Shown here: one piece after another, positions 4,827 through 5,770 of the stretch | Position numbering within the stretch: the stretch's first letter is position 1 | How the letters are laid out: each line of letters starts with the position of its first letter | DNA from: a virus | Taxonomy: Duplodnaviria > Heunggongvirae > Uroviricota > Caudoviricetes | Direction: 5' to 3' (one strand) | DNA length: 9,973 nucleotides | Virus record (IMG/VR): IMGVR_UViG_2645727991_000023 | Location: 1 to 9,973 of that record | Position numbers and translations under genes: made by a program | Notes under the pieces: generated by a model | The model's database searches: none | Seen by the model: the letters and a program-made list of their open reading frames with translations, nothing else | Told to the model about the DNA's origin: nothing

Positions 4827-5166
4827 TAGCTAACCAACGAAGCTAAGGTTGGTAATTAAGGAGTTCTCCACGGGTGAGGTGGAGTGCGTGCGCCGGACAC
4901 GGGTGAGCATCCGGCACTGACAGTTTACTGAAAGGATATTTCCCTGAAAAGTCAGGGCATAACGCGAAAGCGCACGGCGAGGTAGCTGGTTCATAGATAG
5001 CCTGTCGTTAAATTTTCGTCGACCGTGCGCTTCCGGTTGTGGCACTCCGCGAAATGGCGCGGCGGTAAGTATGGCGGGGTTATTCCTTCCCCGTTGAGGA
5101 CACCGGGTTGTCAGGTTGACCATACGCTTAAGTGACAACCCCGCTGCAACGCCCTCTGTTATCAAT
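4827..5166 (+). other. Hairpin-dense untranslated spacer (upstream part of the dicF precursor)
   Basis: No plus-strand ORF here has both a start codon and an RBS. The stems are 4833-4838/4848-4853, 4866-4871/4879-4884, 4892-4897/4910-4915, 4942-4947/4952-4957, 4970-4980/5019-5030, 5047-5051/5058-5062, 5075-5079/5089-5093 and a 9-bp stem at 5105-5113/5133-5141. Confidence 0.5.
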
Positions 5167-5219
5167 TTTCTGGTGACGTTTGGCGGTATCAGTTTTACTC
5201 CGTGGCTGCTCTGCCGCCC
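5167..5219 (+). ncRNA. dicF: DicF small RNA (Hfq-dependent sRNA that inhibits ftsZ translation)
   Basis: The sequence TTTCTGGTGACGTTTGGCGGTATCAGTTTTACTCCGTGGCTGCTCTGCCGCCC matches the 53-nt K-12 DicF sequence as I recall it, apart from about one base. It is followed by T5. It sits between ydfC-like and dicB homologs, 174 nt upstream of dicB, as in Qin. Confidence 0.85.
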
Positions 5220-5224
5220 TTTTT
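5182..5224 (+). terminator. Intrinsic terminator forming the DicF 3' end
   Basis: GGCGG (5182-5186) pairs with CCGCC (5214-5218), with inner CAG/CTG pairs (5190-5192/5207-5209). An alternative local hairpin is GGCTGC-tct-GCCGCC. A TTTTT run follows at 5220-5224. Confidence 0.65.
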
Positions 5225-5226
5225 AA

Positions 5227-5378
5227 AGTGAATTTTGTGATGTGGTGAATGCGGCTGAGCGCACGCGGAACAGTTAAAACCAAAAACAGTGTTATGGGTG
5301 GATTCTCTGTATCCGGCGTTAATTGTTAACTGGTTAACGTCACCTGGAGGCACCAGGCACTGCATCACAAAATTCATT
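5227..5378 (+). promoter_or_regulatory. Long-range 21-bp RNA helix enclosing 110 nt between the dicF terminator and the dicB RBS (candidate RNase III site or translational control element)
   Basis: Positions 5227-5247 pair with 5358-5378. The core is the 12-bp perfect pairing AATTTTGTGATG/CATCACAAAATT, extended on both sides, with 3 G-U pairs in total. The 3' arm ends 3 nt before the dicB SD GAGGA (5382-5386). Confidence 0.5.
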
Positions 5379-5393
5379 GTTGAGGACGCGATA

Positions 5394-5582
5394 ATGGAAA
5401 AGTTATCACGTAATGCCAGCACGTCTGAACTTCGTTTCGAAATTGGCGTTATCACTGGAGACAAAACATTTATTGAAGACGCCATTAAGCAGAGAAAACT
5501 CGAGCAGGACCTGTTAAATGAAGTATGCATTCCTTCAATGCTGGCTCGTCTGGACCTGCTGCAAAAAGGATATAAACAATGA
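5394..5582 (+). CDS. dicB: DicB cell-division inhibitor (MinC activator)
   Basis: The 62-aa ORF starts at the ATG at 5394, with GAGGA 7 nt upstream. The segments FEIGV...EDAI..RK.E..LLN..CI.SMLARL align with K-12 DicB (62 aa) as I recall it. The longer 97-aa track ORF has no RBS. Confidence 0.9.
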   Translation: MEKLSRNASTSELRFEIGVITGDKTFIEDAIKQRKLEQDLLNEVCIPSMLARLDLLQKGYKQ

Positions 5583-5770
5583 ATACAACATTTGCACTCG
5601 TTCTGACAGTTTATCTTGTTTCCGGCGAATCTCTTGAGCTGGTGACTGGCTTATACGGTTCAATGAAAGAATGCATGGCTGCAGCAGCAGAACAAAAAAT
5701 TCCCGGTAACTGTTATCCGGTAGATAAAACTACTCACACTAATAATAACGAAATACCGGCAGGACTTTAA
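5579..5770 (+). CDS. ydfD: YdfD-like small membrane/lysis protein
   Basis: The 63-aa ORF overlaps dicB through ATGA. It has an N-terminal hydrophobic helix (FALVLTVYLVSG) and the conserved tail EQKIPGNCYPVDK...EIPAGL, as in K-12 YdfD. Confidence 0.85.
   Translation: MNTTFALVLTVYLVSGESLELVTGLYGSMKECMAAAAEQKIPGNCYPVDKTTHTNNNEIPAGL

Follow-up and report, generated by a model that had tools for sequence, protein, structure and literature searches.

The DicF-dicB locus

The window, that is, the whole stretch of 9973 nt analysed here, is a segment of an E. coli lambdoid (Qin-like) prophage; of 5426 complete E. coli genomes searched with megablast, 4620 contain the region. Window positions correspond to NC_000913.3 (MG1655) coordinates minus 1644215. 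The features considered in this work are located on the plus strand and extend from the small RNA DicF to the start of dicB (Table 1). DicF is recognized at 5168-5219 by the Rfam model RF00039 with 75 bits, which passes the curated cut-off of 48, and its 3' end is formed by a terminator-like site (5202-5217) followed by a T run. The product of the downstream ORF passes the curated cut-off of Pfam PF05358 (127 bits, cut-off 27), and RefSeq names a 99.6%-identical locus dicB. DicF is a model prophage small RNA, and DicB and the Rac prophage protein KilR are toxic inhibitors of cell division. A search of the plus strand of the DicF-dicB spacer for promoter-like sites returned none, and Ragunathan 2023 did not find an internal promoter upstream of dicF, DicF being derived from dicBp transcripts.

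Between positions 5048 and 5396 the window is identical to the K-12 Qin sequence except for one base in the loop of DicF (G5205, which is A in K-12). The match to K-12 is complete across the whole RNA element described below, and divergence begins right after the dicB ATG (5394-5396). Past this ATG, identity to K-12 drops sharply (MEKLSRNAS... versus MKTLLPNVN...; window 5394-5400 versus L001 3295 onward), which indicates a mosaic junction at the start codon. Judged from these sequences, the RNA module and the dicB allele apparently assort independently.

Table 1. Features of the DicF-dicB region of the window and what each assignment is based on.
Feature	Position	Strand	Basis and remarks
DicF small RNA, 53-nt form annotated in K-12	5167..5219	+	K-12 annotation 1649382-1649434; 3' end is the terminator hairpin
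Terminator U tract plus AA	5220..5226	+	predicted weak pairing with the Shine-Dalgarno region 5380-5386 (MFE)
5' arm of the closing helix	5227..5247	+	pairing, MFE, covariation; starts 2 nt after the terminator U tract
Hairpin H2 (GCGGC...GC.CGC)	5251..5266	+	MFE, RNAalifold consensus; nearly invariant in relatives and therefore without covariation signal
Hairpin H3, variable	5267..5314	+	interior is unrelated sequence among relatives; basal pairs covary
Hairpin H4, 10-bp stem, invariant loop GUUAACU	5315..5341	+	covariation
Hairpin H5, CCUGG/CCAGG, invariant loop AGGCA	5343..5357	+	covariation
3' arm of the closing helix	5358..5378	+	pairing, covariation; homology with kilR-type modules ends at 5378
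dicB Shine-Dalgarno sequence GAGGA	5382..5386	+	sequence; 7 nt spacing to ATG
dicB coding sequence, 62 aa, divergent allele	5394..5582	+	Pfam PF05358 DicB

A 21-bp helix brackets the spacer

The spacer between the DicF terminator and the dicB ribosome-binding site is bracketed by two arms, 5'-AGUGAAUUUUGUGAUGUGGUG-3' (5227-5247) and 5'-CACUGCAUCACAAAAUUCAUU-3' (5358-5378), which pair in antiparallel orientation such that position x faces position 10605-x. The resulting 21 pairs are uninterrupted and comprise three G-U pairs (5228/5377, 5243/5362 and 5244/5361) as well as a longest pure Watson-Crick run of 14 pairs (5229-5242 with 5363-5376). As each G-U pair corresponds to an A-C mismatch on the complementary strand, the helix is specific to plus strand RNA. 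Direct reading of both arms thus bears out the sequence-only reading that preceded this analysis in its 21 consecutive complementary pairs with 3 G-U, whereas the perfect core of 12 pairs stated there is in fact 14 pairs long. The same reading placed CCTGG/CCAGG correctly within 5343-5357 (found at 5343-5347 and 5353-5357) and the Shine-Dalgarno sequence (GAGGA) correctly at 5382-5386, 3 nt past the 3' arm; its GTTAAC-TG-GTTAAC motif, given as 5328-5341, is located at 5325-5338. It also described the enclosed 110 nt as containing local symmetry; an Rfam match and the RNAalifold consensus instead identify a structured, STnc100-related domain.

The arms were the top inverted repeat in a repeat search of the window. 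Their helix is the longest uninterrupted helix of Watson-Crick and G-U pairs spanning at most 400 nt anywhere in the 9973 nt; shuffling the window 200 times with dinucleotides preserved gave longest helices of 13-18 bp, and none of the 200 reached 19 bp. The two arms alone contribute -27.3 kcal/mol. For both 5220-5400 (181 nt, -62.9 kcal/mol, z = -5.0; 0 of 200 shuffles equally stable) and the larger segment 5100-5450 (351 nt, z = -3.9), the MFE and centroid structures contain the helix. The MFE structure adds seven weaker pairs at the outward end, formed by UUUUUAA (5220-5226) and UUGAGGA (5380-5386) with G5379 bulged, and with this predicted extension the helix counts 28 bp. The duplex is real, far beyond chance, and conserved, as shown further by its relatives (see below).

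The enclosed 110 nt form an STnc100-related domain

The 110 nt enclosed by the arms are not a mere spacer but an RNA domain of several helices, which is conserved and related to Rfam STnc100. In a permissive Rfam scan, 5231-5371 matched RF02076 (STnc100) at 34.1 bits (E = 4.5e-6), which is below the cut-off of 47 bits. Relatives of the module score 35-44 bits, and only one of them (L153), whose 5' arm is near-identical to that of the window, passes the cut-off, with 51.3 bits over the full model. The alignment covers model positions 21-154 with every helix matched, H2 having two non-canonical pairs in the register of the model. The closing stem of the model aligns with the 8 innermost pairs of the arms and its internal hairpins with 5251-5266, 5267-5314, 5315-5341 and 5343-5357; hence, the STnc100 consensus of a closing stem and four internal hairpins is present in the window, and the same helices recur in the independent RNAalifold consensus.

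The resemblance to STnc100 and PasD includes a closing stem ending in ...GGUG/CACC..., followed by a GC-rich hairpin, a variable hairpin, a hairpin with an invariant loop and the CCNGGAGGCACNNGG hairpin. In contrast to STnc100, the copy in the window has a stem of 21 bp (28 bp when extended), lacks a terminator and resides within an operon directly before a Shine-Dalgarno sequence. A terminator hairpin of its own (model positions ~172-206) is absent from the window copy: the match stops at model position 154, and the dicB Shine-Dalgarno sequence and ATG follow directly 3'. Canonical stand-alone STnc100 copies (39 distinct arm pairs) possess 8-9 contiguous closing pairs and then their own terminator. 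Since stand-alone stems are this short, the long stem is a feature of operon-internal copies that precede a coding gene. A 2026 preprint treats STnc100 and PasD as related prophage sRNAs; DicF, dicB, kil and RNase III are not mentioned there. PasD has RIL-seq targets, and the literature regards both STnc100 and PasD as prophage sRNAs.

A protein-coding cause for the conservation of the core was considered and rejected on account of length differences that are no multiple of three, the exchanged interior and the compensatory changes in the stems. Within the core, CAGUUAA (5271-5277) could form a pseudoknot with UUAACUG of the H4 loop (5326-5332); both sides of this candidate are almost invariant, which makes the few variants uninformative. 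A stretch of the H4/H5 region, AACGUCACC (5336-5344), is a perfect complement of the DicF 5' seed GGUGACGUU (5172-5180). It is unlikely that this interaction is maintained, given that AACGUCAC does not change in 19 loci whose variable seed position is A or U.

Covariation and distribution of the module

To judge the structure by its evolution, we aligned 117 distinct module sequences. For the whole structure, 95.3% of the cells hold standard pairs; sliding the partners by 1-3 columns lowers this to 33-43%. The 21-bp helix has 91.6% of its cells paired, and in 10 of its 21 pairs both bases vary with pairing preserved. Four of the ten H4 pairs are double-changed yet paired (98.7% of cells), one of the five H5 pairs is double-changed (U-A to G-C in 56 of the 117 sequences), and the three basal pairs of H3 covary (GC/AU, AU/CG; RNAalifold columns 54-56 with 133-135). 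The GUUAACU and AGGCA loops are invariant across all 117 relatives. The sequence-only reading had made its case depend on arms that covary and are present in homologous operons; the arms covary strongly and are present in relatives. The covariation supports formation of the helix in vivo, and the structure it backs provides a concrete basis for the design of arm mutants and compensatory mutants.

The RNAalifold consensus comprises H2, H4, H5, the basal part of H3 and the 10 innermost pairs of the stem. The outer half of the stem is missing from this family-wide consensus because stem length differs among lineages: the closing stem comprises 21-30 bp in the dicB and kilR types, 19-21 bp in the CAGGCUUUGCAAUG types, 13-17 bp in the Klebsiella types and 8-9 bp in the P1/P7 types. 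Where an outer half exists, its two arms are complementary although the sequences are unrelated from lineage to lineage, e.g. CAGGCUUUGCAAUGCGGUG with CGCCGCAUUGCAAAGCCUG and CAGGCUUUGUAAUGUGGUG with CACCACAUUACAAAGCCUG.

BLAST and pattern scans place the module in four settings, namely ahead of dicB, of kilR in Rac-type prophages and phages, of terB and of small ORFs. The BLAST matches in Rac-type phages stop exactly at query position 219, which is window position 5378. P1-like phages including P7 and D6 carry a copy of the core domain with the short closing stem given above; the P7 copy (L138 1501-1616, i.e. P7 72453-72568) is flanked by tRNA genes and terB within the ban operon. Klebsiella and other phage contigs (L139, L148, L173, L191 and relatives) have tiny ORFs 40-70 nt past the 3' arm. 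These encode a 40-aa peptide (MKDFARVPTGNQ...) and hydrophobic peptides of 35-47 aa, none of which has a Pfam match above cut-off; they may be small membrane or toxic peptides.

A DicF-pattern scan of genome contigs returned only eight loci, all in Escherichia, Shigella, Salmonella or MAG contigs. DicF/module sequences of the E. coli type also occur, at 86-98% identity, both in MAG contigs labelled Veillonella, Collinsella and 'Proteobacteria' (L128, L129, L130) and in the records named Aeromonas phage AP1 and Actinobacillus phage vB_Apl-pPE4. These occurrences likely reflect binning or assembly contamination and not true hosts.

A paralogous module in the KilS-kilR leader of Rac

The sRNA KilS of the Rac prophage is annotated from 1418502 to 1418405 (Bar et al. 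2021, PMC8175672). In K-12 Rac, its 3' end (1418405) is located in a U tract directly before the same 5' arm, AAAGUGAAUUUUGUGAUGCGGUG, and kilR starts 176 nt beyond this end. The KilS-kilR leader shares with the window a terminator, a long helix, a homologous core and a 3' arm that adjoins a Shine-Dalgarno sequence, here that of kilR; kilR, too, is the gene of an FtsZ-directed division inhibitor. It differs by a one-base bulge in the 3' arm and by a U tract whose partner, joined by Watson-Crick pairs, is an A5 run immediately ahead of the Shine-Dalgarno sequence, resulting in a helix of ~30 bp. The terminator hairpin of KilS resembles that of DicF, scoring 39-41 bits with the Rfam DicF model, below its 48-bit cut-off (loci L260, MG1655 1418229-1418502; L132 2460-2515; L135 1190-1244); DicF is not mentioned in the KilS paper (Bar et al. 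2021). An RNase III peak listed for kilR-sieB at 1418510 (Gordon 2017) was considered as evidence for the helix and rejected, as it lies 8 nt upstream of the KilS start and outside the module.

The comparison suggests that two cryptic prophages of K-12 share one RNA device ahead of division inhibitors. In the literature examined, we did not find a link between the 3' processing of DicF, STnc100/PasD and KilS-kilR. What the present analysis adds is the recognition that the presumed spacer is an STnc100-like domain with a lengthened closing stem and that it has a paralogue in the KilS-kilR leader.

Probable RNase III processing at the duplex

Host RNase III cuts double-stranded segments of mRNA, as exemplified by the sites in T7 early mRNA and in the leaders of lambda N and E. 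coli adhE. Phage sites of this kind separate functional units of polycistronic transcripts, and some of them unmask a ribosome-binding site. The stem in the window differs from the T7, lambda N and adhE sites in that it caps a conserved 110-nt multi-helix domain and is not a simple hairpin. With 21 uninterrupted pairs, it attains the approximately two helical turns (~20 bp or more) that characterize an RNase III substrate.

According to two papers that cite Faubladier 1990 (Balasubramanian et al. 2016 and Ponath et al. 2022; PMC5069750, PMC9438474), DicF has two 3' ends, with Rho-independent termination generating the 53-nt form and RNase III a 72-nt form. Counted from the annotated 5' end at 5167, the 72-nt form would end at ~5238, a position obtained by arithmetic and not a mapped coordinate. 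This end falls inside the 5' arm, 1 nt from the helix centre (5237) and 19 nt past the end of the 53-nt form. The annotated 53-nt form stops before the U run; if U residues are included, the 72-nt end shifts to at most ~5243, which is still in the 5' arm. Arithmetically, cuts between 5238 and 5239 and between 5368 and 5369 would be symmetric about the helix centre and produce 2-nt 3' overhangs. The reported end concerns the 5' arm only, and from the 2-nt 3' overhang rule we infer the partner cut in the 3' arm, between about 5368 and 5369.

RNA-seq comparison of rnc- and wild type strains (Gordon 2017, Table S1) has an entry for an RNase III site in dicF-dicB at 1649470 (window 5255), flagged as Known = Yes, with 0/0 reads in the wild type and 26 reads in the rnc- strain. 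This peak, which is based on 26 reads versus 0, is located in the core outside the arms. The sequence-only reading had regarded the duplex as a substrate of RNase III and had pointed to published RNase III-dependent processing on the 3' side of DicF. The first of these claims is supported, mostly by published work, namely the 72-nt DicF end, the Gordon 2017 site and the identity with K-12; the second agrees with the 72-nt form and the 'Known' entry. From 5048 to the dicB ATG, the window specifies the same RNA as the K-12 dicBF operon apart from the one DicF-loop base; its divergent dicB allele lies past the ATG and entails no difference at the RNA level. The core claim is thus correct but repeats earlier work, since the RNase III site has been reported for K-12, whose sequence here is identical.

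The papers citing Faubladier 1990 disagree on the RNase III product, two of them stating the 3'-extended 72-nt DicF and one the 5' end of a 190-nt species. The latter is Ragunathan 2023, from the same laboratory as one of the papers citing the 72-nt form, which leaves the 72-nt form unmentioned. Both products may be true and arise from two separate sites. Upstream of DicF, a long imperfect hairpin extends from 4954 to 5047 (arms 4965-4977 and 5023-5035; -37 kcal/mol for 4950-5050). For a 190-nt precursor whose 3' end is the DicF terminator, the 5' end would be close to 5030, within the hairpin's 3' strand, which fits the RNase III cut described in Ragunathan 2023.

Role of the duplex and alternative readings

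Our preferred reading, to which we assign a probability of about 75%, is that the duplex is the extended closing stem of an STnc100-related domain that follows the DicF terminator and precedes the dicB ribosome-binding site, and that this duplex is cut by RNase III. Most transcripts from the dicB promoter are reported to stop at the DicF terminator. In the read-through RNA, the two arms are predicted to join after synthesis of the 110-nt core, a prediction supported by covariation. RNase III would then cut the roughly two-turn helix near its centre, yielding the published 72-nt DicF species, releasing a core RNA of ~130 nt (~5239-5368) and leaving a 5'-monophosphorylated dicB-ydfD mRNA whose leader measures ~25 nt. 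In this way, the cut would part the small RNA from the toxin message. Most likely it sets the fate of the dicB message, in one direction or the other, via its stability or the accessibility of the ribosome-binding site. The presence of 0 versus 26 reads at 5255 fits decay of the cut fragments.

One may ask, as the sequence-only reading did, whether the structure acts as a translational gate. In such a gate, the dicB Shine-Dalgarno sequence would be kept inaccessible by the helix together with its U-tract extension until RNase III cuts or the structure melts. The lambda N leader and adhE are cases of ribosome-binding sites unmasked by RNase III; unlike there, dependence of DicB synthesis on RNase III is here a possibility predicted from folding. 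Folding, by MFE as well as in the ensemble, gives GAGG(A) the (C)UUUU stretch in the terminator tail as its partner. The mean unpaired probability of 5382-5386 is modelled as 0.11 (5167-5455) or 0.20 (5031-5455), as compared to 0.75 in the predicted product 5369-5455, and the cost of opening the Shine-Dalgarno sequence falls from 4.4 to 2.4 kcal/mol upon cleavage. However, the extension is weak and rich in G-U pairs, the opening cost of the whole 5380-5396 segment is not improved by cleavage (7.5 versus 8.4 kcal/mol), and the AUG is still engaged in a local hairpin in the cleaved form (5373-5382 with 5389-5398). Moreover, the cut halves could remain paired through a leftover duplex of -10 kcal/mol. 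In kilR-type modules the helix also reaches within 1 nt of the Shine-Dalgarno sequence, but the Shine-Dalgarno sequence itself is outside the helix. Ragunathan 2023 makes no mention of a translational fusion. Translational gating of dicB is therefore weakly supported by the models and appears to us a possible but doubtful reading; separation of DicF from the message combined with triggering of decay is at least as likely.

Alternatively, the helix might allow RNase III to excise the ~130-nt core as a second trans-acting sRNA of the STnc100/PasD kind. The match of the core to STnc100 (34.1 bits in the window and above cut-off in L153), the treatment of STnc100 and PasD as prophage sRNAs, the RIL-seq targets of PasD and the invariant GUUAACU and AGGCA loops speak in favour of such a role. 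On the other hand, the 0 wild-type versus 26 rnc- reads at 5255 suggest that the core is degraded, albeit under conditions in which the operon is repressed, dicF-dicB does not appear among the RIL-seq candidates tabulated in Bar 2021, and stand-alone STnc100 copies have a terminator of their own, which the window copy lacks. We consider maturation of a second sRNA unlikely. It is far less probable still that the arms are complementary by chance or form a palindrome that acts at the DNA level, for instance in protein binding or recombination, without any role in RNA. GTTAAC does occur twice in the core, and the homology with kilR-type modules ends exactly at the end of the 3' arm, but the G-U pairs make the helix specific to the plus strand and the literature describes the region as transcribed and cut by RNase III. 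Both versions of this reading are effectively refuted by the shuffles (0 of 200 reaching 19 bp) and by the compensatory changes in 10 of 21 pairs.

Beyond the extended, RNase III-cut closing stem that we favour for this locus, we tentatively envisage a reusable prophage cassette, composed of an sRNA terminator (DicF or KilS) and an STnc100-like domain whose stem has been lengthened into an RNase III substrate, with the U tract pairing to the ribosome-binding region of a small gene. Such a cassette would couple read-through to processing-dependent expression or decay, a proposition that is possible rather than probable. Its downstream genes include two known division inhibitors, dicB and kilR; the others, in Klebsiella and other phages, are uncharacterised genes for peptides of 35-47 aa.

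Further complementarities around dicB

Two additional complementarities were noted in the region. The outer half of the 3' arm, AUUCAUUGUU (5372-5381), is perfectly complementary to AACAAUGAAU (5575-5584), which spans the dicB stop codon and the ydfD start codon. Of AACAAUGAAU, 9 of 10 nt are kept in K-12, where the bases are also under coding constraint, and ~0.2 such matches are expected by chance in the region. In addition, a 16-nt inverted repeat (5525-5540 and 5661-5676; 88% complementary, 120 nt apart) has one arm at the 3' end of dicB and the other inside the following gene, which is DUF1482/ydfD-like.
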